64,000 nt of DNA from Dudresnaya verticillata (lineage: Eukaryota), in NCBI GenBank assembly GCA_977862235.1, contig OZ374564.1, forward strand, positions 682,001 through 746,000, written 5' to 3'. A model generated the notes under the pieces. That model searched no databases. It was not told the DNA's origin and saw only the letters and a program-made list of their open reading frames with translations. The translations under genes and the position numbers were made by a program. Shown one piece after another: positions 13,419 through 45,640 of the stretch; position 1 is the stretch's first letter; each line of letters starts with the position of its first letter.

Positions 13419-13440
13419 CACCAGGGGGACAAATCAAGGC
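13419..13440 (+). repeat. Left terminal inverted repeat
   Basis: CACCAGGGGGACAAATCAAGGC, preceded by CA at 13417-13418. Confidence 0.92.
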
Positions 13441-14693: not shown

Positions 14694-16732
14694 GGATTGG
14701 ACCCAGCCAGACTCACATATTACAATCCTCTTCCCCACGCTGTTACACATATCGCACTTCCACACTCCGAGCTATTCCATTTGCCTCCCCCTACAAATAC
14801 CGTCCTTGCTCCGCTAGGTTCTTAGCTTTCCGGTTTCGTAGTTGCACGTGCGCTTTCAATTTGAGTAAACCCAGCTACTTTTACTTAACTTCTCCGCCTC
14901 CATCACTTCTGTTCGCATATGTAGTTTCGAAGAACTAGCTCCGCTATATTCCAGAATCAATAGTACCCCTGCGCGAGTAGATGTCGCAACTTCAAGGATA
15001 CGGTGTTGCAAACACGGCCAAACGGACAGGCCAGACCCTCCTTTTCCTGGTTGCATGCATCATACCCATGGACCTTTCCCACCTTTATCATTTCAGTTCG
15101 ACTCGTTGCAATGCGCACACATTCTCACTCCATGATTACTGAACTGATGAATCTGAAAGAGGAAAGACCCGGCAGGTCCTGACGGAGCATGGAGCATGTG
15201 TGCGCATTCCCTAGTTTCCATATTCCCAGGACTCTATGGCCAGGTGTGGTTTGTAAATGCGTAGGGTTTACAAGCCGTGTAATAGTACCACTAGATTACT
15301 TGCTCCGGTGCTTCTGAAACTAGATAGTTTCAAGAGCACTCGGGCAAGCAGGCACCACCCTTTTGCCATCTCTTTACTTAGCATTAACTCATTCCACCTG
15401 TACCACGGCCCCTGCCGAACGTACATATTCTGTCTATTGGGAGAAGCTTTCGCAGTTTTCTATCTAACTAATAGTTCTTCTCTTGGAAACCTACGAAACG
15501 CCCCTAAGTCACATATGAAGTGTAGTTCAATGACCAACCTAGTGGCTGTGGACAGCCAGCCTCATCCACACATTTCCGTAACAAAGCGGCCGTCACTAGA
15601 ATCATCCTTTCCCTCGGCAGAACCTTTCCTCTGGTGGTTGGGTCTGCACCTCCATCACGAGCCAGAGACTACGTATAGAGACGTAGTGGTAATACATGGA
15701 GAGAAAAGCTGCACGGGGAGAAAGGTTGACCATGAAGAAAGGTTGATCAGGAAGAAATGTTGAGCACAAAGAAAGGATAAGGGCATTGGCAATGTAAAGA
15801 AAATGTAAGGACAGTTCAATGGATTTCGAAACGTCAGCATTAGTGCGAGAAAGGCGAGTTTGAATGCGTTTGAACGGGTACTGTACCTTGAGATGAGTTC
15901 GGCATGTCAAAGCTCTTGAAATACGAAGTATATGGACACTACCATATGGTATATATCCCGTCTTCTCTTAGGAATGCTTGGAGACTTGGCCGTAGACCGA
16001 AGGTGACGGCGTCCTTACGAAGTAGATACGGGTTGAAGGAGAATCTTCATGCGCGTGATATCACATGGAACATGAAAAGCGGACCTAGGCGCCTAGCTAG
16101 ATAGCGTTCCAATTCCGTCCTTGCAGACTTTATAGCGCGGTGGTTGTGGTCAGCCCCGTTTCGATTCCCTGAAAGACCGTGTCGGAATTTCGAAGGATCC
16201 CTCGAACTCCCACAACCGCTCTTCAGCGAGCTGAAGAGCGCGGGAAGGACGAGGTTGTGAAATCGCCATAAACAGTCACGGATATGCTTGTGCCCCAAAC
16301 CACTTGTTTAATCCAATGGAAGCACGTTCTGGTCACATTGGACACATTAACCATCCAACCAGGACCCGCAAACACGATCCGGGTCCCTTTGAAACGACAC
16401 TTCTCTGCATCAGCATGTTCGCAGCAGATAGGAAAGGACACTCATTCCCTAGGAAATCTCAGAATATGGTGTGAGTCAATCAGACAAACACTCTCTATGA
16501 GCGTTTCCAGAACGTGAACGTGGCGTTTTATTTGTTCGATGACTGTCAAACGACGAGGTTTCCCACTTTCACTGGGGCAGGGCGCGCGCGCGGGAAGATT
16601 GCTGCAACGATGAATTGCATCCTTTCTACATGGAAAGGGCCAATGAAAGGACAAGAGATTGGGAATGCCGCGTAATTTACAAATCGAGGTCTATTTCTGA
16701 ATTTGTCAATCATTTCCATTGCGTCTCACCTG

Positions 16733-16785
16733 CCGGATGGACACAGGCATTCACCCTTGTAGGGTGAATCCCTGTGTCCATCCGG
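16733..16785. other. Hairpin with 25-bp arms, 1 mismatch, 3-nt loop
   Basis: CCGGATGGACACAGGCATTCACCCT-TGT-AGGGTGAATCCCTGTGTCCATCCGG. Confidence 0.85.
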
Positions 16786-16918
16786 TACGCTCTGACCGCC
16801 ATGACATCACACAGTAGCTGCTCCCATTATGGCGGGAAACACGATCTCAGAAAGGAAAGAATGTGAGTCCTACGGATGAAGGTGCCCGTCTTTCTGACCC
16901 AAAACATGAAAGGATAGC

Positions 16919-19185
16919 TTGGCTTCTACAACCACGAAAGGTTATCGGCATAGACATTTCCAATTGAGCTTAAGCTCACGTTCTGCAAAACGTTCAGTAT
17001 CATCTTCACTCATACTGGCAAGTCGCGCCAACCTTGGAAGCCTATATCTCACAACCGATATGTTGGCAGAAACTTCAAGGTCCGCCATGGTTGCATCAGC
17101 TGCTCAAGAGCAGAATGGGATCAGGGTAGGTTCTGGTACGATGAGCACGCAGGTACCAATCCAGAGCGGGGAGCCTGGCTTCGGAGCGAATTGCGCAGAA
17201 GACTTACGTGGTGGAGGTATGCGGGCACTGGTTCCAGACGTTAATGCCAACCTACAGGTTGCTTCTGTTGTCCGACGTGAGTTACGTGAAATCAAGGACT
17301 TTATCAATACCTCTCTAGGTTCGCTGAAGAAAGAAGTGAAAGAGGAAGTGCAGAAGATATCAACAATTTCTGATTGTCTGAAGGATGTCATGAGCAATGT
17401 TAACGTTTTGAATACGCAGCGCAGACATTCACGCAAGGATGGGTGCACGGGTAAGCGCAAGAAGCAGGAGCAGGAAGAAGAAGTTAAGATAGAGAAGATG
17501 GAACAAGTAACTGGTCTACCTCTCATTGCAGATCGTGTTCGACTGACGTGGACCATTTTACAAACACTGAATGCCAACCTTTCTTCAGATCTGAGTTCCG
17601 CTGTGGACCTTCCGTTTAACGCTTCCGATATCTCCGCTGCTAATGAATCTGGAAGAGAATGTGAATCAAGCGTTATTCCGACCTTTCCTGCGTACCTATT
17701 CTCGAGGCAGCGCATTGACACGAAGAAGAAGCACAAGTCGTCAATTGCCAGCAGGGCAAGGGAACTTTACTCCGAAATGATTATTCGTTTGGTTTGGTCT
17801 TCGAGGGCCGGAAATCTTTGTTCTTCGTCCCATATCCCGGTCGAGATAGCCCACCGCATACGTCAGTTGCTATGCCGGAATGGCTGTACGTCTTCTTTCT
17901 TCGGTCTGCAAGGAGGGCGACTGGAAATTCTAGACTTGGCTGTGACTCGATTGATCTTGTCGGTAAAAGCACAGACACAGTTCCCCTGGACATGACGGGT
18001 CGGCTGACGAGCGGCCTATCAAGGACGGAGTTGCAGCATGCTCGCATATTTGAGAAGAGAGCAATGAAAGGACAGGTTGATCAAGTGCTGAGGAGAGCTC
18101 ATGAAAGTAGGGAGGAAGGGCATAAGCGCGCTCGAGGAGATCCGCTACAGAATACTGTTTCTAAGAGTGCAGAGGCTAAGAAGTATTGGAATTTGGAGAA
18201 GACATTCACGGGTGGTATTGATCTTCTACGAAAACACACTGCAAGGGTCATCAACACTGGAAGAATGGCTGCCCGAAACGTCATTTTTAAGTCCTTCGGT
18301 TTCAACCTTGCATACCTTGAGGAGAACGAGGCAATCGTTTCAGATGAGTACGGAATTCAACTCGCCCCTCTTTCCTCGGAGGAAGAAGAGTTCTATACTT
18401 CCAAGATCAGTTTGGAAACTGTTATTGGTACAGCTTCTATACTAGAGGTAGGGGATGGGGAGACGGAAATTGAAAGCGTGGACACGACTAACGAAATCCA
18501 GTTCGGTAACCTTCAAAATTCCTTCCCCTCATTAACTATTAGTCTGTAGTATCAAGCTGTGTACCGAGAGAAAGGACGAGCAGGTCGGTTGTCGGGAACC
18601 GCTCCGGTAACAGAGCAAAAATGGACGCAATACGAGCAGGTATCTCTTCATGCAGTTGCACTTCGTGTCTTAATGGAGGCTTCGCGAGCAGAGGGTATGG
18701 CGAACGTTTTGCGGTCCACAAAGCTATCTCTGAGAGCAGTGCATGCTCTAGCGCTGACCTTTCGTGCCATCATTGCATCAGAACTTGGAAAGAATGTGAA
18801 CAGAATCGAAACGTTTCTCTTAGGATCAATAACCTTGCACACTGTTGCACGTAAGGATGAGAGTGGGGTAAGAAAGTCTCAAGATGGTACCGGCGATGGA
18901 AATCGTAGTGGTCGTTTGCGAGCACAGGACGAAGAGGACGAAGATGTTTTCCCCGGTCTGATGATCTTGGACAAGGACAAGATCGGATCCAGGTTGGCGA
19001 ATAGGTTTTCACGTTCAAAGGCAGAATACCATGATCATCTGGCAAAGGATAGAGTTGAAAAAGAGAGCCAAGACCGAGAAGAGACCTTCCATAACAGTTG
19101 CGCAAGGGACAGTCTTATCGCAAACTATGAGGAAGAGGGGATCCATATTCTGGAAGAAGACGAGGAGCTGGACCCATTCTTTTGA
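16919..19185 (+). pseudogene. Cargo gene 1, unknown ~700-aa protein with predicted coiled coil and acidic tail
   Basis: ORFs 16919-17995, 17794-18549 and 18559-19185 join via one frameshift (~17850) and one in-frame TAG (18547). Confidence 0.65.
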
Positions 19186-19438
19186 TCTTGTCACTCTCTC
19201 TGTCGGGAAAGTAGCAGCGCATTTTGTTTGAGTACATTATTGTTTTGCGTGGATACCTTGCGAAGCTTCTTAAAGTAATGATGTATGGGAAACAGAATTG
19301 CTTTGGGAAACAAAGTTGCTTTTCAATTTGTTGCATGCTCTGCACGGGAAATATGTCCATTGGAACTGCAGCTGCTGCAGTGGTGACAGTTTAATGCTTC
19401 AAAGCAACCACGAAATATATAAAGGAGATATCGTAGAT

Positions 19439-19498
19439 GCGTATCGACATGAAAACGATATGTATGTTGCGTATCGACATGAAAACGATATGTATGTT
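19439..19498 (+). repeat. 30-bp tandem duplication
   Basis: GCGTATCGACATGAAAACGATATGTATGTT x2. Confidence 0.9.
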
Positions 19499-20895
19499 GA
19501 TAAAAACAATTCTTCGGACTGGAATCATTGACCTTGCAGAGCTAGAGCTAGCTGTCGACATTGTTCGGCAATTAAATTTCCTACATTACCGAACTGAGTC
19601 ACTCCTAAGAAGATTTTCTATCCTACGTTACCGAAGGAATGCATGTCATGACGATATCCTTACTTCAAGTTTTCGAAAGGACGAACTCCTATGACGACGC
19701 CCTTTCTTACGTTGGAGAAAGGTCGACTTTATTTGAGACCGTCCTTTCCTATATCTCGAAAAGGATGTAGTACCCTGTGACGATACTGGTCGTTACATAT
19801 TATACCATGTACACTGTAAAGTATTCTTCATCGTGTATAGAAAGGAACATGAATTCTGGTGACGCGACAACGCGTTGTAGTCTCCTAGGTTTCGGAAAGG
19901 ATGACGATCTACAACAATGACAACGTCCTTTGCTACGTTTCAAAAAGGTCGACCTTAATTATATTTAGTAGTCCTTTCCTATATCTAGAAAGAATAAAGT
20001 GCTCTGTAACGATTCCTTTTCATAGGAAAGGGAATCGCAATGGTGGTATAGAAAGGGGCATGAATTGTGGTGACGAGGTCCTTTCCTTGCTCTCGAAAAG
20101 GATGACTATCTACGACGATGTCCTTTCCTAGCTGCAGAAAGAAAGATGTATATGTAAACGTCGTACGGACGTCCATTAACGTATTTATTCTTACATTTCG
20201 GGAAGGATCAATGCCTGTGACTATGGCTTTCCAGAAAGATATGGTCATGGACACGGTATGTGTACAGGAAAGGATATCGAAACATCATGATGCATCTCAA
20301 GATCAAGCATAATCTAGGTTATACTTCAGGTGAATTCTGTCGAAAGGACGCTGCGTCCTGGTGATCGATCACAAACTGCAGTTTGTAGGAAAGGGTATGC
20401 CCCTTCCTACTACAGTATAGATTATATTACTATAACGATAAATCTGTGCTGAAAGGATGAGTCACTACCGGAACGTATTTTCTGTCAGAACAAACTAAAA
20501 GATCTTATACTTTCGGAAGGACATTGTCTATGCTCGACGTACATCTAGCGTGAGCCTAGGCTTTGTGCAACACCAATTAACATTACACAACATGTTAACA
20601 TTTCTAACATTACCGAGAGGTTTAAGTTTTGTGAAAATATCCTTTCACACTTGCGATGCCGAGAAGACCGCGGTAACGCGTTTATGCCTAGGCGTAATGT
20701 CAAGCTCGACAATAACTATTTCCTAGAAAAGGAAAGGATCCGGAATGGCTGCTGCCGGGAAACAGCTGATTTTCGCTAGCGGAAGGAAAGGTACTTACTC
20801 AACTCGTAAAAGAAGTTAGTCAACTCGCGTCTCCCAATGACTCCTATAAAAACGTACTTTACGGGTTCTTTTTACTTCTCATAGTGATACTATGC

Positions 20896-23800
20896 TTAGT
20901 ATGAGTCGGTGTCGGAGTCCTGATCATTGTCATCGTCACTTTCTATCGTTACTGTACCCTCATGCTTACGTTGAATATCAGCAGGTGCAGCAGGTTTCGT
21001 CCTATCTCGAGGAACGTATCTGTTCAAGGGGAAAACGGGTGGAAGGTTCTCGTCATTGATCCGCCATGGAAAGTCGGGATCCTTGACTGACCACAGCGAG
21101 TCATGTAGTGTCGAACCGCTGCGTACACAATACGCATGTCCTCGAATGTTCACCGGGACGCCACGAACTTGGCACATATACAGATATCGACGATAGTTGG
21201 AATAGACGTCTTGACTGCTTGTGAGAGGATACGGCGAATAACCGCCACATCCGAAAGCCAGCTTGTTCTCCTCTCCACTAGCGCCTGCATGGCCGGTGTC
21301 CCCTCGAATGAGGAGGAGGCTGTACGGCGGAACAGTAACGAGCCTCGATGGCATGTGCCGAATCATCTGCCTCCTAGCCTCATCACTCAGAGTGTTCAAA
21401 ACCTTGTGCGAGCCCGGCCACATCCGTATCGCGAAAGGTTCGGCACCGGAGAACATAATCGTCAAATGGAGCATCTCTGGTGCGATTCCATACTTCTTCT
21501 CAGGCTTGTTCTCTCCAATCACACAGGGCATCCACCCTGGAGCTGGTATCATAAAGTCTGTGTGGCATCGTTGGGGAACAACGGCATCCGATGTGCAGAT
21601 CAATTGGCAGCCTCGCAACGGAATTCGCAACGGCTCTTCCCTATCCTGGAGTCCTGCATACTCCAGGTATAGCGCCAGGAAGAGCTCCAGCGCACTTGTT
21701 CTTGAATAATCCTTGGACCACGACCTTTCCTGAACTGTTATCCTCGGAAGAATCCGCCATTAGGGAATCGCAGAACATGTGCGCAGTAGATTGGAAGCGA
21801 AAGTTCTTCGCGGCCTCGTCCTTGTCCTTTCTCAGGACTTCTGCGATCTCCGTCGAAACCCTTGCAGTATCCTGCTCCGAGTTCGAAGTTATGATGTGCC
21901 ACCAGTTGTCGATATCATTCGGATCACGGGTGTTAGACTCCGAGAGCTGTTCTTCCAGCTTCGCAAGCATGTGTTTCATAACCGAGTCGACACATGCGGG
22001 TATGATGCCACTACCAGTTCGGGCCATGAAATGACGGTCGACGTAAAATCCATCTCTGTGAAGACACTCACGGAGGACGTTGAAGTGCGACTGCTGCCAG
22101 CGCTCGAAACGACTCGAATCCGACATGCTTGACTGCGGTTTATAACCGCACTGATAAGCCGATGAACTTGCTGTCCTGATGGAACGCCTAACCTCCTTCA
22201 CATCTTCCTCCCCCAGCACGATATTATGGGGCGCCTCCGCTGAAATTGCAGAAATGTCTTTGAGACGAAGTTCTTCTAGCATGCGAGCTCGCGGGAGGGC
22301 TGAGAGTTGTTCTTCAGTCATGGCATGGGGGTCTTGCCTGCAAGCCGAAATGGTATCCTTACGCGAGTAAAGAGAACTGTACTCATTCCAGACTGCTCGC
22401 AAGTGGTCCTTTGCGGCTCCCCTCCTTTCCCTCTGTGAAGCCTCCCTGTAACGAGAGAAGGGGACCTTGCGGTGGCTTGCTCGGATGCTGTAAACCATCC
22501 TTCCCTCCTCATCCTGCTTCTGGAATTCTGCAGGACCTGAACCGTTGTTCTCAATCGTTCCAATCTTCGGAAACCGCGAATCTTCTCGACGCTGATCTGG
22601 TGCCCGGTTGCGTCCCGCTTTCGAAACCTGCAGGTAGACATTCTTTGGGGCCACGGGCTCCACCACGTCTTCTGAGGTCTCCACACCGCTCGGCATATTC
22701 ACAGAAGGCTCTGGATGGGAGGGGTTCTCTGCTCTCTCAACCGGTACTCCAGACTTAGCAGGGGTACTACCGGACCCAGCGCTCGAGCGCATGCGCTTCG
22801 GATTTTCTGCAGGAGATGAGGAAAGAGAGCTGCGGCGGCCGGTACGTCTCCTGATAGGGCTGTCCTTTCTCCAACCTGATTGATTGGAAGAATTCTGGAT
22901 TTCGGACAGCTCACTGTCGTCCTTTCCGCGAGTAAGGACAATGTCCGTATCTTTCCTCACACGGCGCCTGGCACCACGAGCGGCGCGGCTTGCGAGGCGC
23001 GTGGCGTGCTCAGGAGTATCCTGTTCATTTACGGCACGCTCAGGAGGGGTGCTTGATGGCGTACCCCGGGGTAAGGACGGCCGTCCTTTCGCGGCACGCT
23101 CAGGAGGGGTGCTTGATGGCGTACCCCGTCCTTTCGCGGCACGCTCAGGAGGAGTGCTTGACGGCGTACTCCGTCCTTTCGCCGCGCGCTCAGGAGTGGT
23201 GCTCGAGTGCGTGCCCTTTCCTTTCGCGGCCGCGCCGGAAGGGCCTCTTGACTCTGTATCCTGTCCTTTCGCGGCACGCTTAGGAGGGGCGCTTGAGTTG
23301 GTATTCTTGTCATTCGCGGTAGGATATGAAGGGCTACGTAAGGCTTCTGAAAACCCTGTGTTAGGATGAAACGTTTCCTTGCGCAACTTCCCCAGAACGG
23401 AAGTTATGTATGCCATCTGTTCATTGAAGACTTCAAACTCGTCGTAAAGTGATGTGTGCTCCAAGGGCCATGACATTGCAATGGAAGATGCTCTGAAACG
23501 TTGCTCATCAACTTCAAAATGTTGAACAGCAAGACGAGATGAAAGAGCATACTCCAGACCGATGAAAGGATCTGATAGCAGATCGCTGGTGCCGTTCTGG
23601 TCAGGACGTGATCGGGGACTCTCGATTCTTACGTCGAACCATAAGCTGCTGAAAGACGTAGCATCAGGCCATGCCATTCGGAAGCTGCGTTCAGCAGCAT
23701 CCATAACTTTGGCTACAACGCTGATGAGGCGACCAATCTTGTCGGCGCTCCAAAGGTTGTCACCTTGTATACCAAACTTTTCTATGTAAATAGACCGGAA

Positions 23801-24844
23801 ATCTGCTGCACGCATGACGCAGAGTTTTCTCTCGTAATCGCTGAGCGACTGGAAGGCATGATCCGCAAGCACCGAAACGACGTAAGCGTTGCAACCTCTT
23901 GTTTTGAGAATTTCCTTCACATGGGCCATCAACTTTGGGGAGCCATCGGCGATGAGGGAAATGGAAACTGTGAGCCAGGCAAGGCGTTCCTGCATGGGCA
24001 TGTCCTTGAACATGTATTCATTTCCATTTCCGTCGATGCCCAAGTAGACCTCTTCTGCCGCGAACTCTTCCAAGATACCGACCTTGTCATCTTCATGAAG
24101 AAAGGACAAGGTTGCTGTGCTCGTATCGCTAGTCCTGTTGCTGATGTCTTCCAATAGCTTCAGAACTTTCGTGGACAAAGTCCCGTACGGCTTGTGATCC
24201 TCGTGCAGAAAGCGTTCCAATCCCCCAAGTATTTGAACTACGGCCCTAGCCTTTCTTTTCTCTGGAAGTCTCGCCAGTGAAGATTGAAGAAGTTCTTCGT
24301 CGGTGGGGATACCAGCATCGTCGGCATACAAATGATCTTCGTGCGTAGCTGACACGGGAGGATCGATAAACGTCACACGTCGACCTTGTCCCGTCCAACG
24401 AGACCCTGCCGCACGTGCGCTTCCGGAAGCAGCGGGTCGCGACACAGGGTCAGAGTCCTGTGCATCCGCCACTGCAGTTTCAAGGTCGACGGACGATGAC
24501 GCTCCACCCTTTGCAGGGAAAACCGGGGGGCGGTCCGCACTGATGAGCGGATGGTCTTCTCCAGCGACGGCTTGAAGACCTTCTTCAACCACTTCGCCAT
24601 GCGGCGAGCTAGTCACCAGCGTCTTTCTGCTGGTCTGCGGCTCTTCATCTCCTATCTCCTTGAGATTAATCGGCTTTCGAGCGAGTCTTCTCTTGACGCG
24701 AGGACTTTTGGAGCTCTTCTTGATCGCTAGAAGCCTGTCTTCACCGCGCTTCATCCTCTCCTCGTATTCCAGACCCTCCTTGGCCGGGTCATCCGACGGC
24801 TCTTCGTTGACTGGACTGATGCCTAGCCTTCGCTTCTTCACCAT
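20896..24844 (-). pseudogene. Cargo gene 2, ~1300-aa protein with C-terminal PhyH-like 2OG-Fe(II) dioxygenase domain (one frameshift ~21700)
   Basis: LHRDGFYVD (PhyH-type N-terminal motif) in ORF 21641-24844; QRCHTDF (HxD), MWPGSH and LLLIRGDTGHAGAS (distal H) in ORF 20896-21630. Confidence 0.72.
23030..23290 (-). repeat. Coding tandem repeat, ~45-bp unit (GRGTPSSTPPERAAK) x ~5
   Basis: Unit CCTTTCGCGGCACGCTCAGGAGGGGTGCTTGATGGCGTACCCCGT is visible on the + strand. Confidence 0.88.
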
Positions 24845-25728
24845 CCTTCCAAAACTTCTCGCGACGCGATGTGCCCTCCGGCAGATATGCGCACTCGAGG
24901 GCTGTGGCGCGCCGGCCGTGCAGAAAGCCTTGTTCGCGGAACGCTAGAGCGTGCGTCGGTTGATGGTATTAAAATACCGGGTCCCTGGCGTCAACACGTA
25001 CAGCAGGCCTGTCGAGCACCAGCGCAGGGAGGTCGGTGCTGCGGTAGTGATTCTACCGAGGCGAGTAGGGGAGTGGACAGGGAAGAAGGATGACGGTGAG
25101 CGCCGAACGGAGCAGGGAGGAGAAGATGTGGGTGGCGGCGCGGTGAATGTGTGTCGGGCACCTCGGTAGTGCGGTGACCGTATAGTCCTGGCCTGAAATA
25201 GGCCTTCAGAACCGTGAAAATACCAGCTTCTGTACGATGATGAACGCGCGTTCTCAACGGCAACCAGAGTTCCGGCGGAAAAGATGCGCTGCGGGCGGTT
25301 CCTCGACACGCACATGGCGCTTCTGGTTCCGCCCAAAGAATGTTTTTTTTGAGCCTTTCTTGGACTCTGACCTTCAGATGCGAAAGAGAATGCCTAAACA
25401 GTGGCCCTACAGCGCGCATGAAAGGTCTAATATGCTGCAAATGTATTGGACGTTGAGACTGTAATGTAAAAGATCCCAGTTTTCATTCATGGAGCGGACA
25501 CATGAAGGTGTTTATGTAAGCACCCACTTCGTGCGACATGGCCTGGTACGCGCACGGGTGGGCTGGGCCATTTTGACACATCCTTGCACAGACAATGATC
25601 AGTGTTGGGTATCCAGAAGTAAACCATGCTCACTCAAATGTAAGAAGATGGGAAAGGACAGCAATCCAATAACAATGGTCCTCTCTCAAGAGGAAAACAT
25701 GGCAGTTTGTGATGAAATGAATGTTCTC

Positions 25729-25789
25729 AGTTCGGAGAAGCGGAATCAGTACTGATTCGGAATCAGTACTGATTCCGCTTTTCCGAACT
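25729..25789. other. Near-perfect 61-bp palindrome containing two AATCAGTACTGATT palindromes
   Basis: AGTTCGGAGAAGCGGAATCAGTACTGATTCGGAATCAGTACTGATTCCGCTTTTCCGAACT. Confidence 0.85.
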
Positions 25790-25869
25790 TCGCTGAACAT
25801 GATCCGCGGATGCGCTTTCCGCTTTCCGCGGAATGCGCAGATTTCTCTAACAAGATGACAACCTGTACA

Positions 25870-26110: not shown

Positions 26111-26293
26111 AATGCAGAAAAATTTCCGTGCTTGCACTAGGTACTAAGAAGGCAAGGACAAGGTCGAGAAGAAATGCAATTGAACTTCTTGTAAACATTT
26201 ACATGCGAAGTCTGCTAGACTTCAGCAGCAAGACGTAGAGAACGCCGTCCTATACATTGTAACTTTCCACAAATGACATTACGCCTTACCTTG

Positions 26294-33121: not shown

Positions 33122-36100
33122 ATGGAATCTCGAATACCACCCCACTTTAATAATCACAGCGAACTCTCCGAAGTTCTATTGGAGCTTCACCGTCGATGGA
33201 CGGGTCCTGATGTTGAAGTCAACAACGAAATTATCACATGTGTGGTATCCACAGTTCAACGCCTTCTTGGCGTGAAAGTTCCCCTGGCGTTACAGCACAG
33301 GTTCACAACGGTTCTTCTTTTCTTTGGGCCCTTACGGATGAGATCAGCACTGTCTAGGTACCCGCATGCCTCGATTTTTAGGATGAAAGGATGGCTTCTA
33401 TTCTCTGTTAGCGAAGGAAAAAGAAGGCTATACAACCTTTCATTCTTGAAAAGACTTGTTCTCGTGGTTAGGGAGGAGACTAGGGGAAGTCCCGCACGTC
33501 CATCTCTATGCAAAGGTTTCGTTCGCGAGTTTGTCCAGATTGATCCTGCCGGCAGAAAGTGCATTCTGACATTCGCGGTTAACCTTCTGGGAATTCTTTC
33601 CACCATTGAGGACATCTGAAGGGGAAGGAACGAAAACGGAAAGTATGGGCACTGTGGAAACAGAATAATTGGTCTGCAGGAGCCCCTCGACTTCCCGAAG
33701 TTTAGACAGATTGGTCATGGAGTAACATTACTATTCGGATCACCAACATTTGAAGACACTGGGGACCACATCATTGGAAATGTCGGCGTATTGAAGGAAG
33801 TCGAAAAGCTTCTGAAGTGCTTCATGACAGATGTAGTCGCTGGTAAACAGGCGAAAGCGGCTAGAGATTACCATAGGCGATGTGGACTCCTAGAAGGTGT
33901 CTGGAGAGTGACAGACGGAGATATTGGGATTCAATTCGCCACGAATGCAGGAAGACGGATCGGAAAGGAGATTCTTTTAAGACTTCGGACAGCAAAAAAC
34001 ATTGCAAACCCCAATCTCGCACATACGTTCAGCCCTCCATCTGCCTACGCGAATGATGTATGCAGAAAGTCAGCAAGTCAATTCGAAACCTTCCTTCAAG
34101 GGTGCTATTTTGCTATCACAAGTGGTTTTGAAGAAAGTAGCACGAACATGACTAACCTAGGGCTCTATGCGGACCAGTGGGTCCAGAGTGTTTTGCAGGA
34201 GAGTTCTGGGAATTTCAAAGAACACATTGAGGGTAACGTTCGCGCTAGCGCATCCAGGGTTGATGTGAATCAAGATGTTTCGATACCGCTTCACAAAGAA
34301 GGGCGTGTATACGAGCATCCTTCCACTCCTGCAAGTTTCGCAGCACAATTTACGGCCCACCAATTGGCACCTAGAGGGCCATTTCATTTTGGACAACCAC
34401 CGGTTCCGATAATTGCACCACAGCCTTTCAGTAATATTGCTGCTGGTTTGTGCAGCCATCCTTGCATTGGAAATTCTAGTGTTCATCCTTTCATCATGGA
34501 GGATGTCGACTACTGCATCGGCCAGAACTACGATAGGAACATGGAAGGGCAAGGGCCAGCGAAGCAAACAGTTAAGATGTCAACATTGCCGATACGGAAT
34601 GATGGACAAGGTTTCCTTCAACAATTCGTTGCACCGCCTTCTGAGAATGACATTTTTCCTGGTGCTCGTCATGTCCGATTTACCGGACCGCATCGGGAAA
34701 CTCTTTTGATCGCCAGTGAGTCGAGTTCAAGTGGTCTCTCCTTCATGAAGTCTGATTCGCATTTCCGGACGCAAGGATGCAACTCACAGCTCGATCTGTG
34801 GATACCTAGCGCACCGGATCTAGGTGACTGCATTGTTCCCATCGTGCCATGTCGAGAAATCTGTGCAGATACTGATCCCCTCACATTTTTATGCGATGTG
34901 GCTCTGGGAGAAACGAATCCACTCTCAAATCTCTGTGATACCGCCCTTTCAAACGAGTTCTCTCTTAGTTGTAAGATTTCAGACAGTGAGTTCCTTCGCG
35001 ACAGGACTACGACCTTTACTGGGCAAGGACATCGATTTCCTTGCGCAGTAAATGATAATGTATGTTCATTGGGCCATTCTTCAACAGGCGAACACATTGG
35101 AAGAAGAAGTCCCATCATGCCAAAAGCATTTGATGCTGTCGATGATATTCAAACTGGTGGAAATACAGATGGACAGCGCAATTTTGTTACACAACAGAGC
35201 CCCCACGATATGTTGTGCGACAGGGCGGAGGTTGCTGATGATACAAGCCCAAATATGCAGACTAATACATGCAATTCTGCAAGGATGCTTACTTCTTGTG
35301 AACAAACAAGAGATTCTGCTGCAGGCAAGGACGAAACCACACCAACGGGACAGGATCTGTCGCATCCTTCCCCACAAGGACGCCACAAAGGTTCTGATTT
35401 GACATTCCCAAGCAGTATCTCCATGCAAAAAACTATTCAGGAGCAGAATAAACAGACCAGTCATCAGGCCCAAAAAGAGGTGAGTGTTATGCATACTCAA
35501 TCGGGACGACGCTCAAGGCAAAACCTCCATTTGTCCGCAGCAGATCCAGGTGAAGATGATGCCCCATATCCAAATGGGCCTGCATTGGGTGTCTGCAAAA
35601 CTTACTCTGAGTCAGGAAAGGGCGTAAAACATTATCCTTTCCCAGTATTTGCGAAACATATCCGGGACGGGGATAGGAGGCCAGGAGAGTCAACTAGTTC
35701 CCGCAACAGACTACTGGATACAAGTGCCGATGAGAGGGTTATGTCATCGCTCTCACGATTTGGTAGACTAGAAATCCTGGATGTCCTCAAGGAAAACAAA
35801 ATATCACCAACATCCATCCTGGAAGTAATGGAACTACTGCGGAACACGGACTCCCGCACGAAGGCGCAAGATTTCGCTCAATTGTGGAAAAGAGATATCC
35901 GATACGCCGTCCTGAATATGTTCACGGAACCACCAGGTCAAACTTCGGACGACACAGATGCTGAAAAAAGGACAGGACCGGAGGTGCAAGTCCTTGGAGC
36001 TGGTCGTCGAGGAACACGGAGGATTGTCAGTGTCGCGTTTCAGCACCATGCCAATCTTCGCAAACATGACATGTTCGATGTTCTGATGGAAGGGAACTAT

Positions 36101-37486
36101 ACAAGATGCTTTGTTTCAAGGATATATGACGAAAAGGAGGAAAGGGTGACAATTGCGCAGTGCTTTGCAAGCTGTAAAGTAGACTGGGTGCGTCTGAAAC
36201 GTGCATCGCCTCAACAACGCTTCCGCACCGTCATCAAGAAGAACCTTACAGACGTTTTCAAGAAAATTCAAGCTTTCGATAACATGCACTTGATACAAGG
36301 AATCTTGAAGCAAATCCTTTTGAACGAGAGGGGTCCTGAAAGGCTACCGTTGCTTACTTGGCAAAAACTTTGGGAGCTCATACCTTCTGGTTCTCGAACA
36401 GCCATCAAAAGATTGGGTTCGAGCCCTGATACTACTATCAGGGAACGTCTTCAGGCTGAAATATTAGGTGTCATGTGTTACAACCTTCGCGTCACTAAGA
36501 TGTATCTCCCAAGTTTTCAAATGGGCGAGATATTCTACCTTGTCCGGCACAACTCCGGGTCTATCGCAAAACAGATAGTAGTGGATACAGTCTGCTGCAT
36601 TCTCGAAGGTTTCCCCACAAAAGCAAACATACAAAAGGGGGAGGATTACACAGCAGCCGAACAGACTATCCGCTGGTGTCAAGGAAAGCTGCGCTCTTCC
36701 AGGAGTTCTGCCGTTTCTACAAGTACGAGTTTCTCACAGCAAATGGAATATGGTGAGTCACTTGAAACCTCTGCGACAGCTTGCCTACGAGTTTTGGTAT
36801 TAACCTCATCACGTCAGGAGACAGTTCTCGTCAGAGAATCGTTTTCAAGAGCCAGAGTGATGGCTCATGACCCCCAGCAGAATGAAAACTTTTCCGCACC
36901 GATTCAGTTATACACGGTTACGAGCTGTCGAGAAAGGAATGTTGCCGACGCAAATGACAAAGGGAATACATTCGAGGGAATTCATGTCATCCTGTGCAGC
37001 ATTGAAGAAATTCATGAGCTTCAACGCCTGATGAACCGCGTAAGCAAGAGAAAGAGAGTATGTGTTCCGAGCTTCCGTTCCATAATATTGGTGAACGGGG
37101 ATTACGTTCCCGTCCCAGCCTTCATTCACCTACTCACATTCGCTTCTAGCATCACTGTAGCATTCACACTCTTTGGGATGCATGATGATTCGGCTGAAGT
37201 TGAGGGTGATGTTGAATTTTGGAGAGGAAAGGTTGCAGCAGCGGACCTCTTGATTATGGAAATGATGTGGAATGTTAAAAGCCTCGATATCCGAAGGCTC
37301 GATGCGCGGTTTACCGCCGCAGATATATCAGCAACGGCGGGGCCGTGCGGGCCCGACGATACCATTCCTTCACCGGGCCAAGGGGAACAAGGAAATCTCC
37401 ACAGCGGCCGCACTTCATTGGCCAGGACAAGAGCTATTGCACGCAAGGAGATCGGAACTGCCGTGAGGAGGCGGCTTTTCCACTAA
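33122..37486 (+). pseudogene. Cargo gene 4, ~1450-aa protein with one in-frame TGA (33617); C-terminus resembles a degenerate SF1 (UPF1/SEN1-like) helicase
   Basis: ORFs 33077-33619 and 33791-37486 are in one frame with no other stop. Ordered remnants IFYLVRHNSGSIAK, VLVLTSSRQETV, VILCS, FRSIILVNGD, FTLFG echo SF1 motifs I, Ia, Ic, II, III without catalytic residues. Confidence 0.55.
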
Positions 37487-37739
37487 CAGAGAGAGGGCCA
37501 CAGTGCTGCGTTCCATTTATTGAAACGGTATTGGCCGAAACATTTTCTGTGGACAGTAAAAGAAGGAAGCATATTGATCAATGGCTGCGGTGTCTCAACA
37601 GTTCACCAACCATTACGGAGATTGAGGAGGTATTAAGTCAGTTTACAACTCAATACAGTTCTTTTCTTTGTTGAAAAGTCGATTTCATGTCGCTTTCTTG
37701 TAGACATGGAACCTTCCCCGGGATGCATTCGTAAGCGAT

Positions 37740-39460
37740 ACCCTTTCCTATAATTCGCATCCATGGACCTGTCCTTTCCTCTCGGATAAGAAAAATAGTA
37801 AAGGACAGAAAAATAGGAAAGGACAACGTCCTTTCAATTGCATGACAGTTATGCTGCTTTGAAAGGGACCAAGGGGCATGATTGAATGGAAAGTCGATAC
37901 TGCTTGGTGTGAAAGGACATAGTCCTTGCTGCTTCGAAAGGACATGATGAGATTGCAAGCCCTTTTTTCCTAATCCACGGATTTTTCTGTCCTTTCCTAT
38001 TTTTCTAATTCATGTGTCGGAAATTATGAAAGGACAGGATAAAGGAAGGGACTTCGTGCTTTCAATTGCTGTCTTACTTTTCCAAGGATCAGAAAATAGG
38101 AAAGGACAGAAAATGACATCGTCCTTTCCATTGCTTCATAGTCATCCTGCGGGAAAAGACATAGTCCTTGTTGCTTCGAAACCAAGTGATAGGACTTGCG
38201 AGTCATTTTTCTCTAATCCAAGAATTTTTCCGTCCTTTTCTATTTTTCTTCCCCATGGATCAGAAAAAAGAAAGGACCGGAAAAAGGAAAGGACGTCGTA
38301 CTTTCAATGGCATGGGCGTTATGCTGCCTGTCTTTCTTATCCATGGCTCAATATTGGCAAGGACAGAAAATTGAAAATGGCCTCGTCCTTTCCGTTGCAT
38401 CATAGTTATTCTGTTGGGAGAACAAATAGTCCTTGCAACTTCGAAACGACATGATAGGACTTGCAAGTCCTTTTTTTCTAATCCAAGAATTTTTCTGTCC
38501 TTTCCTATTTTTCTTCTCCATGGATCGGAAACAAGGAAAGGACAGGAAAAAGGAAAGGACGTCATGCTTTCAATTGTGCATAAGCGTTATGCTGCCTATC
38601 TTCCCTATTCAAGGAATCAAAAATAGGAAAGGACAGAAAGTTGAAAGCTACCTCGTCCTTTCCGTTGCATCATAGTTATGCTGCTGGGAGAACACATAGT
38701 CCTTGCAACTTCGAAACGACATGATAGTACTTGCAAGTCCTTTTTTTCTAATCCAAGAATTTTTCTGTCCTTTCCTATTTTTCTTCTCCATGGATCCGAA
38801 ACGTGGAAAGGACAGGAAAAAGGAAAGGACGTCATGCTTTCAATTGTGCATGAGCGTTATGCTGCCTATCTTCCTTATTCAAGGAATCAAAAATAGGAAA
38901 GGACAGAAAGTTGAAAGGGACCTCGTCCTTTCCATTGCATCATACTTATGCGGCTGGGAAACGACATAGTCCTTGCAACTTCGAAACGACATGAGAGGAC
39001 TTGCAAGTCCCTTTTTCTAATCCAAGAAGTTTTCTGTCCTTTCCTATTTTTCTTCTCCATGGATCGGAAAAAAGAAAGGACCGGAAAAAGGAAAGGATGT
39101 CGTGCTTTCAATTGCATGAGCGTCAGGCTGCCCATTTTTCGAATCTATGGATCGATAAATAGGAAAGGACGCTGTCCTTTCAACTGTTGAGAGTTTTGCT
39201 GCCTATGTTTCTTATCCATATGGCTGCAGCCATGAGAAAATAGGAAAGGGTAGAAAACAGGAAAGGACGTCGACCTTTCCATTGCATCGGAGTTTCGCTG
39301 CTTGTAAAGAACATAATCCTTGCCGCTTCGAAAGGACATGATGGACTTGCAAGTCCTGTTTTCATTATCCATGAATCGCAAAATAGGAAATGTCCGAAAA
39401 ATAGGAAAGACCGTCGTACTTTCAATTGCATGAGAGTTATGCTGCTTGGAAAAGACACAA
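37740..39460. repeat. Tandem array of ~240-270-bp units (~6 copies) rich in GGAAAGGAC/GTCCTTTCC
   Basis: Marker AGTCCTTG(C/T)..CTTCGAAA recurs at ~37921, 38163, 38428, 38698, 38968 and, degenerate, ~39316. Confidence 0.92.
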
Positions 39461-39865
39461 TGCACTTGCATCTCCATGCTGCTTGAAAATGACATGATGG
39501 ATATAACTTGTAACTCTATCATGTTGGTACTGCATACAGAAGCCTATGTAACACAGAATTCTGTATTTTTCAGTCGTCCGCATGCGGCAAGCCATGACTG
39601 CAATACCGATCGTCCTTTCATCGATGGTTGGTCGATCGTCCTTTCTTCGAGGGAAGGACGGACGAAAGAAGTCTTCGGCTTAATTATATCCTAAGACAAT
39701 AACCGGGGAAACACTTTCGAATATTACAACGAATTTGCTTCTGTTAATGATTCAGCATGACCTTTATTTTCATGTGCACATCTACAATCACAGCTCTGGA
39801 TACATTTACCCAGCATATATATGCATATATATATGTGCAATCGATTTGGCGATGATCATCGCCTA

Positions 39866-42800
39866 TCATGCATTTCGAGGCGGGTATCCTTTCCAGCGCT
39901 CCAAAATGAAAAATTGTGCCTGCAGAATATGACGGTGTCCACGTTTGCTGGCCTGACAGGAAGCTGAACATCTGTGAATGACACCAACTCGCCTACAATA
40001 CTGATTCCAGAAAAGTAATGACGGCCCGTTCTCCGGGATAGAAACTTCATAAATCTCATCATGGCATAGAATCTTACTTTCCGATACCGGTGAGTTTCCG
40101 GGCGTTACATTATCTTCTGTGTGGAGTGCTTGTACACAAGGTAGCACTAACGCTCCTGTTTTCCCCTTGTATGAAAAAAATGTCAACACGTACCAGAAGG
40201 ATACTGCTTCTTCATATAGTTGTGATTCATCGCTATTTGCAGGAATATCTTCGCCCTGTAGAACGACAGGAAAGGCGGGTTGCGTTTGTCCTTTCAACCT
40301 TGCTTCCAGAACTTGGACAACATCTCCCTGATGTACATCAAATGAATTCATGGGTGGAAGAGCTCCATTTACCATGCCGGATTTCCAGACAAGCCTAGCC
40401 CGGGTACCGAAGAGCTTATGTTCTTTTCGTTTCTCCTCCGAGATGGAAAAATAATTCAACAGTATGTTTGTTCCGCTCTCGCTCATTCTCAACTCAATAT
40501 CTTCCGGCCTTCCAAAACCTTCATCATTTGTCATTGCGCCATCGGAACAATGCCATGTGGAATGCGCAGTGAACTTCCAAAGGTCATCTACTTCCCAACT
40601 GCTTCTGTCATCTTTCATTGATCCGGTTGTGGACATTACTGTCCTACCTTCGCGTGCTAACCTTTCATCAACCGTTCCTTGGGGTCCAAGAGCTCTGCGG
40701 ACGAACTCAAAATCAGCGTCCTCCACTCTTCCTTTCCTATCTATTATTGCTTCCCTCCCGCAAAGGAGACGTAGCAGACCTCTTACGGTATCCTTTCTGG
40801 GCTCATTGCCTTGCTCTCTATATTCTTGCACGAGCATGTTCATTCGCCCCTGCCAGTCATTCATAGCTGCTGCCGTGACAGCATAGTCCAAATGCGAATC
40901 CCTATGATTTGACCTTGTCACGGATCTTTTCAACCCTTGGTGGGCTCGTTCAAACGCAAGCTCAGCCACTCTACGAATGCTTCCAATCATTGGCAGCAAT
41001 ACCATCCCAAGTTCGTACAACCTATGCGCGTTTGGATGATCAAACCTCTCTCGTGCAAGTAAGGTTTCCGACCACTCGCGTTGAGACCGGGCCTTCCTCT
41101 TCTTCTGTTCAGAGCTTCTTCCGGACCTTGCCGCTTGGTAGTCTGCAAAATCGTTTGCAGAAAATGTGCAGAGGCGACGAGCAAGGTCCAAATGCGAGAT
41201 GATTGTCTTCTGTAGAGAAGCTACGTAGTTGTATCCTTCATTTCGGTTGAATTCAACTGACATTTCCTTTCCATCAACTCTAGCTCTCGGCCAATACCAC
41301 AATCGAGAGACTAGAACTGAGAAAGACTGGACCAATGCAATTGCAAGTATGCATTTTCTGGAAAGACCTGATTCTTCTAGAGAGGTTATACCACTTTCTC
41401 CACTCCTGGCCATATCAGTCTCCGGAAACCTTAGTATATCGGAATGTGACAATACGCTTGATCCACTACAATCCCTGCAAATGAGCTTCAGGGCAAACGG
41501 TGCTACATACAGGAGGACATAGAGTTCACTCAACTTCATAGAATGAAGACTTATGTGAGAGCTCTTCTCCGGGTCCTAGATTCTGTTCTGGAATGGAAGT
41601 CGTAATTCCTTCATGATTGAGATGCAGTACACATCAAACTTTCTTCGTTGAGGTCGGGATAGCAATACTATGATGCAGTTGAGACAATCCTTGGCATGTC
41701 CTGTTAATAGATGGTCAGGGGCGATGAGCATTCCCTGGTATGGATCAATCTGACCAGGAACAACGGGATTACCATACTCAGTTTTTGGAATTCGGTCCCG
41801 ATTGCGCAAGAACGCTTCATCCAGCTGATGAATCAGACAAGAACCCTCCTTTCCCACTGCACTTATTCCCAGTTCTTGCCTCTTCCGGTTATCAGTGCAA
41901 TAGTTCCTGACTGAAACATGCCTCCTGTGGTACCTTCTCGCGTGCTCCATCCCTCCATGGAGACTGGTTTGAAGGTAACGAGCATTCACCGGGGACACAC
42001 CTCCTCCCTCCTTTTCCGAAGATATATCCTGTCGAACGTACTTACAGAGATGACAACAAGCATCTGCATTGTGCCCACGGATGTCTAGGACCTGGTTCGC
42101 TGCAGGAGTATCAGCAAGGATACCAACGAGGTCGAGAAATATTTTAACCCTCTCCCCGTCAGCATCGTAGTCCTCGAAGCCTTCTGTCATCCCCTTCACT
42201 AAGTCCTCCTCCAATCTTATTAAGACCTCGTCGACATTAACGCCAGGTGGCACCAAACTCAGAATGAGAACAGAGGAACTGCTGGACCTTTCCCTCGGGG
42301 CAGGTTAAGACATACAATATAGATTCCCTCCCCGCTGGCTTGCTTCCCTTCAGTCATCCTAAAACCGTCCCAGTACAGAAGGAATCTATATACAACGTAC
42401 TTGCAGCCATCCTTCAGGTTTCCGATACTTGATCCAACTCGTTCCAGTTGCTCATCTGAGCTACCAGGAACCTGTGGTAGGACAATTATCTTTCGAATGC
42501 CACGTACACGGTTCAATACATGGGCATCACTAACATTCTCTCCTTGATCGCTTGAGTACAGAGACCTGAACATGTGACATAAGTCACCCATATCCCGCAG
42601 TTCATTTCCTTGCGAATTGCACTTCGGAGCAACCCATAACATGAATCTGGAAAGGTCGTCATCTCGAGGAAAGAAGCGATGCACAATAACGATAATACTG
42701 TTTCCATTCTCATATTGTAACGGAGAGATAAGCGTAAAAGTATCCCCTGGACATTTTAACCTCTCTGCCATCTGCTGACAGAAGACGTCTTCTGTACGTA

Positions 42801-44343
42801 CGTTATCAGTCGGATTGTAACCCTGGATAAGTATACCGGCGATGCATTTCCCTAGTTGGGAAATCGCAGTATGAATATATAATTCATATGAAGATTCACG
42901 GCCATGTCCGTCATGGCGTGCACAGAAAGCAACAAACTTTCCAAGCACTGCGGTGCCGGGACTAAGGTTCGTCCTTTCACCCGATAGTTGACTGAAAGTG
43001 GCACGTAGTTCGTCTGGAAGGTCTCTGGAACCAAAACAAGAAACTTGAACCACATCACCAAGTTTGGCACGGGTGTTTGGAACATTACAATGTCCTGTAA
43101 TATTACCGCTTTCTTCCTCGTCCACAGAGATGCACTGAAATCCTCCGTAGAATCTTTTCCTTTGCGCCACCAGGGGCCAGTCATCAACAAATTCCCAATC
43201 CCTAATAGCAGGCCGCACAATGCCATTAGCTTCGGTTTCAAGTCCAGCCTTGCTTTCTAACGAGGTTGCCTTTATCGCCCGGTGCACAGGACCGCAGGAA
43301 ATATCCATCCTTGCATACTCACTCACCGGAATCATACGGACCGCAGTTGTCGCAGACCCTTCCGTGGATAGTGCATTGACGCCAGGCTTGTTAATGTCAA
43401 CTTCATGGATCTCATCTGTAGCTCGTGCGATTAAACTAGCCTTCAGTGCCCTCATATAATCTCTCTTAATTGTCCGATACGACGGGAAAACAAAAGGAAG
43501 TTTTTGGCCAGCGTAGGTAGTGCCCCTGTTCACCACTGCGGGAGCAAGTGACGTGTCTAATGGAACTATCGAGGCTTCCATAGTTGACTTCTTCCAGGAG
43601 GATAGACCTTGCATACGATTTACAAGATTAATAATCCTTAGATGTTCATCGTACTGTTCTCGAGACAATCGAACACTTCCCGATACCATCAGGATAGGGA
43701 GGATAACTTGCCAGTGGTTTAAAGACACTTGCGCGGAATTTTTGTAGTCGCCCTCATCTCCATCATCATTAGTCAGGTCAATGTTTTCGTCGACATTGTC
43801 AAGAGCATCATATGAAATATCCTCGTCGTATATATCCAATCTATCCGTCATTTCACCTTCTTCACATGGGTACTCTTGCTTTTCTATCTCACTGTTGCTT
43901 TCCATACCCTGACTTTCTGGGCGCTCGTCCTCCACAGTGCGTCCAGAAAAGGCATCAGCATTGCGACCAGATGATTCAGTTGAGTCAACCGCAGTTATCT
44001 CTTCTCTTGAGATTCGTGTCGGGAGAGGTGCATTTTCGACTCCTATCCTTTCCTGTGCATGTGTCCAGATACTGCAACGTCCACTCATCCGATTATCAAG
44101 CATGTCGTCTGGTTGAACCGGTTTCTCCCTCTCGTCATTTTCGTTGGGGCAATTGCCTTCTGGTTCCAAATGAGGCATGCAGAAGGGCACCTCTTGAGAG
44201 GTCGGTCGCTTATCGAGAGGGGATTCAACTGCAACCCCTGAGGGTGGCAGCGCTGCATGCTCATGGACTACCTTGCTCAAACCAAATGCCTTATCCACTC
44301 GGCGCTTCTTCCACCCTCGAGATCTCGACCTTGTCCAGTCCAT
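39866..44343 (-). pseudogene. CACTA/EnSpm-type (Transposase_21/TnpD-like) DDE transposase, ~1490 codons, one frameshift (~42290) and one TAG (41576)
   Basis: Ordered motifs LYWDGF, CLNLP, LADTPAA..GHNADACCHLC, APDHLLTG, AFERAH are characteristic of CMC-superfamily transposases. Confidence 0.85.
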
Positions 44344-45099
44344 CCTTTCACTCAGTCGACTGATGACTATATTACCTCACTTTTGCCATTCTCCAGGTAA
44401 TGAAACTTTCATGCGTTACGATAACAACCGTGATCTGATTGTTCAGTTCAGCGAAATTCCAATAGCTCCCGGTTGCGGACTGAAACGTTATCCCTACCAA
44501 GGTGAATCAGTGAGGGATCCCTAGATACATTGATATAATTACTAGCACTAGCACTGATACTGAAATATCGACTCACTTTCTAGAAAGTACAGCTATACAG
44601 GAGAGAACGGCAGCCTGACGTTCACAATCATTCGATGTGAAGCGGTTTGAGAAGTGGTTTACCGACTGCTTGCTGCCATCTGGTCGGTAACCAATCAGTG
44701 AGGAGAACTCACTTCTGGTGACTGCGAAGGTCTGGCCTCTTACATTTCTGATAGCGCAATCAGAATGCAAATTACAAGCCTCACACCTCTGTCTGTGATC
44801 CCTGCTAATCCCTTGTTCATTCATCACTTTGAACGACCAGTTAATGCAGAATGCGTTTATGTATGCCTACGACGACCGCTTTGAGTAGAATCTCATTATC
44901 TTGCCAGGGAACTGTGGCACCTCTCATGGCGTTCCACAGCCATAAATTCTTGATTTTTATGGAGATGAGCGACCAGGTAGGCAACAAGGTCCATTCTGTG
45001 CGATGAGTCCAGGCTGACAGAAAAGATTGAGCCAAAGCACTTCGAAAAGCAGTTCAGTGGGTACTGCTACAATTATTGCGGTTAACTGCAATAATCGAA

Positions 45100-45640
45100 A
45101 GGGCTTGTAAGCCTTTCATATGCAGGTTCATATGAATAGACTTGCCTTTCATAGGCCCTGTCGTATAAATAGACCTGTCCTTTCATAGCCCCTGTCGTAT
45201 TAAGGGACTACCCAGACTTTCGCACGAAAGGACCATTTGGCGACAATGTCCTTTCGTACGGACCAGCTGTCCTTTCGTATGAAAGGATCAGGTGTCCTTT
45301 CATATGAAAGGTGTCCTTTCGAGTGAAATGACCACTCATCCTTTCGTGGTGATTTTTGGTGAAAGGATGATCATCCGAATGGACACCTCACACAAAAGTG
45401 TGTGTGAGATGTCCATTCATCCTTTCGTGGTGGTTGTCGGTGAAAGGATGAATGGACATCTCACACACACTTTTGTCACACTTTTGTGTGAGATGTCCAT
45501 TCATCCTTTCACCACTTTTCCTTTGATGTAAAATATGAAAGGACGCTCGTATGGATTAAATTATGCAGTTCATGAAAAGGCACGTCCTTTCTTACGGCTC
45601 GCGTGCACGCGTGTACGCGAGCCGTACGAAAGGACGAGCC
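45100..45640. repeat. GAAAGG-rich spacer with nested inverted repeats upstream of the transposase
   Basis: Perfect 29-bp arms at 45439-45467 and 45485-45513; second hairpin 45583-45636; numerous CCTTTC/GAAAGG copies. Confidence 0.88.

Follow-up and report, generated by a model that had tools for sequence, protein, structure and literature searches.

The window analysed here is a 64-kb stretch of DNA (64,000 nucleotides) from Dudresnaya verticillata, positions 682,001 to 746,000 of contig OZ374564.1. It contains a giant DNA transposon of CACTA type, probably of the Plavaka lineage, at 13419–48175 (34,757 bp including a solo long terminal repeat, LTR), and an eight-base word, GAAAGGAY (Y is C or T), accumulates in the spacers of this transposon. 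An earlier note on the same DNA correctly placed a giant element here; the element is larger than the 15700–45640 given for that observation. The transposon begins with CACC in a 22-bp left terminal inverted repeat (13419–13440, + strand), which has one mismatch to the right repeat (48154–48175, − strand) that ends in GGTG at 48175; a 2-bp target-site duplication, CA, flanks the whole (13417–13418 and 48176–48177). These CACC..GGTG ends, the inverted repeats, the duplication and the transposase encoded by gene E place it in the EnSpm/CACTA superfamily (CMCT clade), whose members are described as having CA..TG termini in inverted repeats, a 2–5-bp duplication and a DDE domain that carries C(2)C as well as H(3-4)H motifs (PMC12730594). 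Red-algal giant Plavaka elements of this superfamily carry accessory genes, PAG1-3 (bioRxiv 10.1101/2025.02.11.637652, Petroll et al.), and linkage of a similar transposase to PAG-type genes in a second locus, L005, is the ground for placing the window transposon tentatively in the Plavaka lineage. Its two ends (13419–13701 and 47847–48175) share other words, CAAATCA (five copies), ATCTCTG (four) and ATATCAG (three), some of them inside the terminal repeats; these are candidate transposase sites. An Rfam scan of 13000–49000 matched no family.

The transposon lies within a copia fragment, and its surroundings in the window are nested gypsy and copia retroelements. On either side of the transposon, the interrupted fragment matches an intact copia element (50890–55254, − strand, with a 1,454-codon frame). 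About nine bases to the left of the transposon (13410–13418) have no match to the interrupted copia, and the empty site seems to carry a short extra piece. At least five copia LTR copies at 97–98% identity are present in the 64 kb (49904–50895, 56134–57017, 48574–49565, 13702–14693 and 7875–8954), and the family has likely been active recently, leaving solo LTRs. One of these, in the left end of the transposon itself (13702–14693; 992 bp, TG..CA, 5-bp duplication GGATT), contains no copy of GAAAGGAY. In the gypsy LTR copies we observe clusters of a palindrome, ATCCGGAT, six in the left flank (1–13418) and four in the right (62000–62600).

Six genes, A to F, are separated by spacers of 1.3–2.4 kb. 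Spacer S0 (14699–16909), upstream of gene A, has the word at 15604, 15771, 16432, 16619, 16645 and 16908; the last copy straddles the spacer/gene boundary and was counted in neither bin. Gene A (16910–19185, + strand), a coiled-coil-like accessory gene, is broken by a frame change and an in-frame stop. It converges on gene B (20896–24844, − strand; one frame change near 21720), which encodes a PAG3-type protein lacking ParB, and the spacer between their 3' ends, S1 (19186–20895), holds 11 copies in degenerate repeats. S2 (24944–26293) has eight copies, seven of them in a 21-bp tandem array at 25870–26105. Gene C (26294–29918, − strand), a paralogue of B, has an in-frame stop at 28536–28538 and a frame change near 26975. 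The divergent spacer S3 (30650–32953), 5' of C and D, carries 13 copies, mostly in AT-rich degenerate units of 30–50 bp, and gene D (32954–37486, + strand) runs for about 1,500 codons, interrupted once by an in-frame stop. S4 (37487–39865), convergent between D and E, contains a 270-bp tandem array that, together with its diverged edges, accounts for 31 copies. Gene E (39866–44343, − strand) encodes the DDE transposase, with a frameshift near 42290 and a stop at 41576–41578; upstream of it, S5 (44377–45887) has 15 copies in short inverted repeats at 45100–45640. Gene F (45888–47741, − strand) is an open frame of about 615 codons. The other five genes each have a frame change or an in-frame stop, F alone being unbroken. 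Introns could account for some of these breaks, but the two pieces of gene E align end to end with a relative, so the window copy of the transposon has likely decayed.

GAAAGGAY occurs 113 times in the transposon, 56 times on the + strand and 57 on the −. Relative to an order-2 Markov expectation computed per region, it is enriched in the spacers (84 copies in 12,083 bp, 3.7 expected) and in the genes (28 in 21,683 bp, 3.7 expected), and sits at chance in the flanks plus solo LTR (2 in 30,234 bp, 2.2 expected under the same model). The earlier note had reported the word in every internal spacer and seen little of it in the flanking retroelements and at the termini. Both observations are borne out by the counts: the intervals it named, one in each of the six spacers, hold 4, 11, 7, 12, 31 and 15 copies (80 of the 113), and there is one copy in the first 500 bp of the transposon and none in the last 500 bp. 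It had also described both orientations, which applies to five of the six intervals; at 25870–26105 every copy is on the + strand. The following base is a purine in 71 of 84 spacer copies and 26 of 28 gene copies, giving an extended site, GAAAGGAYR, and no single-mismatch variant of GAAAGGAY exceeds 11 spacer copies. No fixed spacing of pairs is common to the spacers, and tail-to-tail pairs with a 3-bp gap occur in S4 only.

Much of the word lies in repeats, and its excess persists once tandem copies are collapsed. In the pooled spacers the most enriched 8-mer is GAAAGGAC; collapsing by shared flanks reduces its 60 copies to 32 distinct contexts, about 20-fold above the 1.44 expected (log10 p = −30.9, compared with −5.4 for the best word among 20 Markov simulations). 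Single linkage at 9/12 flank identity groups 115 sites into 65 contexts, 40 of which have a spacer member. Of four settings, the most permissive (8/12), at which chance merging is likely, gives 23 contexts, 11 of them represented in a spacer. Spacer-to-spacer BLASTN returned matches of 14–24 bp only; none reached E < 0.05, and the motif lies at the centre of nearly all of them. Because the spacers share nothing but these short matches, the repeat types are unrelated, as the earlier note had held. The excess extends into coding sequence: the frames contain 27 copies, roughly five times the 5.0 ± 2.1 seen in 1,000 synonymous-codon shuffles (maximum 13), and 24 when a 45-bp repeat in gene B counts once. 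One gene A piece was mis-framed in the shuffle, and that piece had no copies. After collapse, the convergent 3'–3' spacers have about 15 contexts in 4.1 kb and the promoter-bearing spacers about 30 in 7.7 kb, a similar density. Within the DNA of the window, where the flanks are at chance level, GAAAGGAY is not a general host word.

Genes B and C point to a candidate reader of the word. The predicted B protein has an N-terminal helical domain (about residues 225–520 of the 21641–24943 frame; its counterpart in C is encoded at 29181–29918), a low-complexity linker and a C-terminal PhyH-like oxygenase with an intact HTD..H..R. The linker is where the 45-bp coding repeat lies (23081–23296, − strand); it encodes PERAAKG units and contains four sense-strand copies of the motif. 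C and B are paralogues (E 4e-27), with 29% identity over 215 amino acids of the oxygenase, and in C the HxD has become HTK and the distal His is absent, so the metal ligands are lost. The HxD ligands have also been lost in four oxygenase relatives, P0016, P0017, P0018 and P0010. Searching 1.84 billion sequences with the B oxygenase domain found 49 representatives, in which HxD, the distal His and the Arg are conserved; its nearest Atlas clusters are PhyH by ESM features (0.93), and its named relatives are Pyropia yezoensis members, which makes a red-algal host likely. PDB sequence searches gave nothing significant, and a single-sequence fold of the oxygenase reached a pLDDT (predicted local distance difference test) of 31. 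The suggestion that the element carries a dioxygenase therefore holds as far as B and C are oxygenase genes, but the enzyme is PhyH-like and not TET/JBP-like: Pfam searches of B, C and 32 relatives found no TET/JBP match.

Among 16 long relatives, 11 carry a ParB-like DGxHR domain, and the other five start with a helical domain as B and C do. The N-terminal domain of B/C aligns weakly with the helical region that follows ParB (hhalign E 1.7e-4, probability 50%, 68 columns), and in a tree of the oxygenase only, the ParB-less proteins form one group (Shimodaira–Hasegawa approximate likelihood-ratio support, SH-aLRT, of 99 in a quick tree of 33 rows including one fragment). The model of the C N-terminal domain is helical (pLDDT 74), and its best counterparts among the matches listed are generic helical bundles (Z 6.7) covering residues 146–246. 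LanC-like Atlas matches to this domain all fell below 0.9 and were judged to be noise. By the architecture published for PAG3, B and C are assigned to the PAG3 family of red-algal Plavaka: they have a PhyH-like 2-oxoglutarate (2OG) oxygenase at the C terminus, and repeat arrays (S1, S2 and S3) adjoin the genes. Because ParB is missing from them, we regard them as a variant and not as canonical PAG3.

Searching with a DNA pattern for the oxygenase motif yielded 31 further loci, of which 26 encode the oxygenase and make up 16 families; the five without it (L006, L017, L028, L030 and L031) served as controls only. The same pattern found nothing in viral contigs, and a locus search by protein pattern found no relative in viral and metagenome contigs. 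Most of the 26 oxygenase loci have the ParB-like DGxHR domain, and a gene for a PF01555 methylase often adjoins. In L003, L004, L005, L024 and L029 this neighbour is PAG2 (PF01555, with SET added in L029), and a ParB-like domain plus oxygenase beside a PF01555 gene is the published PAG2-PAG3 arrangement. L005 joins a transposase related to E with both PAG2 and PAG3; by eye, its PAG2-like methylase (3734–6646, − strand) has a DGAHR motif near the start, which hints that the methylase, too, includes a ParB-like domain. The L029 sequence (1–10278), on a contig filed in a bacterial bin, packs two PAG3-like genes and a methylase-SET gene tightly together, and may be either algal DNA in a bacterial bin or a prokaryotic relative.

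GAAAGGAY itself has 0–3 copies per locus in all 31 and is enriched in none of the 16 families. Some of these families repeat words of their own, as VANDAL families do. In the L003 family a 13-bp near-palindrome recurs 26 times, for the most part with unrelated flanks; in the L008 family a 20-bp palindrome whose arms are 8 bp long is present 22 times; and L004 has 13 copies of a site that lies mostly inside a 22-bp palindrome. In each of the three, no copy falls inside the roughly 8.6–8.9 kb of PAG2/PAG3 frames. The collapse test on relatives left out L002, L012, L020, L029 and L030 and skipped L005, which has too little spacer; in it the L003 family and L004 pass the simulation floor (log10 p −10 to −14) and the L008 family does not, since the procedure also merges the copies of its long site. 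The L004 and L008 sites share a GGTA-n4-TACC core, and their PAG3 proteins cluster together in the quick tree (SH-aLRT 90). Each family with a clear word of its own carries a PAG3-type gene; tblastn of A, D, E and F against the fetched L003, L004 and L008 DNA gave no match. L025, L009 and L015 offer weaker or single-array candidates, and the remaining families, mostly with less than 3 kb of spacer, showed no motif. Upstream of PAG3 in L003, among the motif copies, is a second, short ParB-like frame (2440–2886, + strand). L015 has an array of AAAACGACCCC in both orientations near its contig end (8100–8363) that resembles a classic CACTA subterminal repeat.

The other genes of the window transposon are less readily placed. 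Gene A has weak homologues beside PAG3 in L015 and L016, and gene F has homologues beside PAG3 in L015/L005 and L016; either may be the counterpart of PAG1. A Tudor-like start to F was a by-eye impression without Pfam or PDB support. No homologue of gene D was found, and a by-eye reading of D as a degenerate PAG2 was dropped after profiles of the methylase domain and of full-length PAG2 (N6 methylase plus SET) gave no match to it or elsewhere in the window. The gene E product carries CxxC and H-x4-H, as transposases of the CACTA clade do, and its YWDG, LADTP, CHLC, HLLTGH and FERAH motifs align with the L005 transposase (core piece E 1.6e-36). Its match to Transposase_21 is weak (E 0.019), and neither E nor the L005 transposase has a Pfam family above the cut-off. 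Word-indexed protein searches with two pieces of the transposase had no match, and with the ParB-less alignment they recovered nothing beyond the query. Pfam assigned no family, and no VANC-like domain, to any accessory gene of the transposon, a direct comparison with VANC not having been made.

Together, these data suggest that GAAAGGAY(R) is likely a family-specific self-recognition site, with the PAG3-type proteins B and C of the element as the candidate binder. The earlier note had proposed self-recognition by an element-encoded protein on the precedent of VANC. The layout of the motif fits that proposal, but PAG3, in which binder and oxygenase are one protein and no separate enzyme is recruited, is a nearer precedent: it has been suggested, with reference to VANDAL, that PAG3, combining ParB and a 2OG oxygenase, binds adjacent inverted-repeat arrays and so modifies the element that encodes it (bioRxiv 10.1101/2025.02.11.637652). 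We lean, by a narrow balance of the evidence, towards B and/or C binding GAAAGGAY through the helical domain and so bringing the oxygenase to the transposon. Specifically, the N-terminal helical domain, homologous to the region after ParB, would read the word, and the many copies in either orientation would allow the element to be coated by B/C. Tethered in this way, the B oxygenase, an Fe(II)/2OG enzyme, would modify the DNA or chromatin around it, and the C product, lacking metal ligands, could act as a non-catalytic partner or competitor. The payoff would be that copies of the transposon family are kept active; we hold such an anti-silencing effect only tentatively. Since the window copy has likely decayed, an intact copy elsewhere would be the likely source of any binder. 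In red algae, methylation is reported to be mostly non-CG in Gracilariopsis, and H3K27me3 to lie on repeats in Cyanidioschyzon (PMC8566409).

Several observations weigh against this reading. The published PAG3 proposal depends on the ParB domain, which is missing from B and C; a ParB profile built from the 11 relatives found nothing in the six frames of the window (best E 3.8). Fold searches with the C N-terminal model gave no helix-turn-helix among the matches listed, with residues 1–145 barely covered, and DNA binding by the helical domain of B/C is for this reason something we only infer. At the level of loci, the ParB-less clade is represented by the window transposon alone. A clear word of their own is present in only 3 of the 16 related families, and L009 and the L022/L027 family, with 3–9 kb of spacer, have no word above the simulation floor. 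The procedure also returns a word above that floor in a control region, the left flank (ATCCGGAT, log10 p −7.9), and in the 270-bp array the motif columns are as variable as the others (34/71 and 83/191, p 0.58). The observed/expected ratio of CpG is 0.91 in the transposon, 0.89 in the intact copia and 1.16–1.25 in the flanks, which is no sign of heavy CG methylation or strong CpG depletion in the transposon. We know of no PhyH-type enzyme that demethylates DNA. Finally, A, D, F and the transposase are possible binders too.

That last point is the alternative that survives best, although we consider it unlikely: GAAAGGAY could be a self-recognition site bound by the DNA-binding region of the transposase itself, the kind of region from which TnpA derives in Spm, or by the product of gene A, D or F. 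Transposases can activate their own copies in a sequence-specific manner (bioRxiv 10.64898/2026.08.24.746577). S5, with its 15 copies, lies upstream of the transposase gene, A and F have conserved counterparts next to PAG3 in both L015 and L016, and F is the sole unbroken gene. Yet TnpA binds termini, where GAAAGGAY is nearly absent and CAAATCA and ATATCAG are found instead; the families of L003, L004 and L008 have motifs and PAG3 without an A, D, E or F that tblastn could detect in the DNA fetched; and L016, with its A- and F-like genes, has no repeated word in 1.5 kb of spacer.

An improbable alternative is that the element has captured GAAAGGAY as a binding site for a transcription or chromatin factor of the host, which would drive or insulate the genes of the element. 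Sites of host factors are typically short, asymmetric words found in either orientation. Such a factor is hard to reconcile with chance-level counts in the 30 kb of flanking DNA, several LTRs among it, with the similar collapsed density in convergent and promoter-bearing spacers, or with the different words of related elements, though the latter are likely from other species. We give slightly less credence still to GAAAGGAY as the recognition sequence of a PAG2-type N6-adenine methylase acting in trans and marking the element as self. Bacterial amino-methylases often have short, asymmetric, adenine-rich targets, and PAG2 adjoins PAG3 in the five loci named above; profile search detects no PAG2 in the window, and the PAG2-bearing relatives repeat long palindromes, which are closer to ParB sites than to methylase sites. 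Least probable is a neutral by-product, in which slippage and local gene conversion spread one old repeat unit: most copies do lie in tandem or inverted repeats, and the motif columns of the 270-bp array are no better conserved, but the spacers have in common only GAAAGGAY and a few flanking bases, single-mismatch variants are rare, and local duplication does not explain the dispersed single copies or the coding excess beyond codon expectation.

Bacterial ParB binds palindromic parS through a helix-turn-helix located after its N-terminal domain. Canonical PAG3 families with ParB are paired with long, parS-like palindromes; that the loss of ParB in the other clade goes with a short asymmetric, half-site-like word is a conjecture drawn from one element. 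More speculatively, and in our estimate rather unlikely as a whole, red-algal transposons may be engaged in a VANC-like arms race in which one protein reads a family word and its PhyH-type oxygenase erases a silencing mark or writes a base modification. In such a scenario, the ParB-less branch would have exchanged long parS-like palindromes for a short asymmetric word in spacers and codons, with the catalytically dead paralogue as a regulator.

The general idea that PAG3 binds and modifies its own element is already in print (bioRxiv 10.1101/2025.02.11.637652). In the literature covered we found no named target motif of PAG3 and no binding test; the preprint's supplements, which may show motifs, fall outside that coverage. 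New here are the GAAAGGAY motif, the family-specific motifs of the relatives and the pairing of a ParB-less clade with a short non-palindromic site. These turn a published guess about PAG3 into a defined cross-binding experiment of four proteins by four sites. If the proposed role of B and C is correct, sequence-specific self-protection would have evolved a second time, independently and outside flowering plants, and B might be the first enzyme of the PhyH type shown to act on DNA or chromatin.

A number of known systems share features with the window transposon. Fungal transposons with TET/JBP genes, Plavaka among them, are likewise CMC-clade elements with an Fe(II)/2OG oxygenase, but the window oxygenase is PhyH-like and activity on 5-methylcytosine cannot be assumed (PMC12730594). 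The Spm TnpA system has the CACTA superfamily and clustered, family-specific motifs in common with it; TnpA sites and hypomethylation are terminal, whereas GAAAGGAY avoids the termini, with one and no copies in the outer 500 bp (bioRxiv 10.64898/2026.08.24.746577). Sola1-1_Ec32 of Ectocarpus, likewise a giant transposon of an alga, encodes a modifying enzyme joined to a ParB-derived module, and self-modification has been proposed; there the protein is an N4/N6 methylase that keeps ParB, and here it is an oxygenase without it (PMC12477816). As in the Arabidopsis Mutator-like VANDAL elements, targets of VANC, a motif of 8–9 bp is piled up in internal non-coding tandem repeats and differs among families, while the superfamily and host are others and the candidate binder is fused to an enzyme. 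Binding and hypomethylation have been demonstrated for VANC (PMC5735166; PMC10398659), and for the window transposon they are a prediction; it resembles VANC/VANDAL in motif layout without being a member. It differs from a complete PAG1-3 cassette in that PAG2 was not detected in the window, and from canonical PAG3 in that B and C lack ParB. With the red-algal Plavaka elements that carry PAG1-3 (bioRxiv 10.1101/2025.02.11.637652), it shares giant size, a DDE transposase, a PhyH-like oxygenase gene (the best match of theirs being 2OPW) and adjoining repeat arrays.

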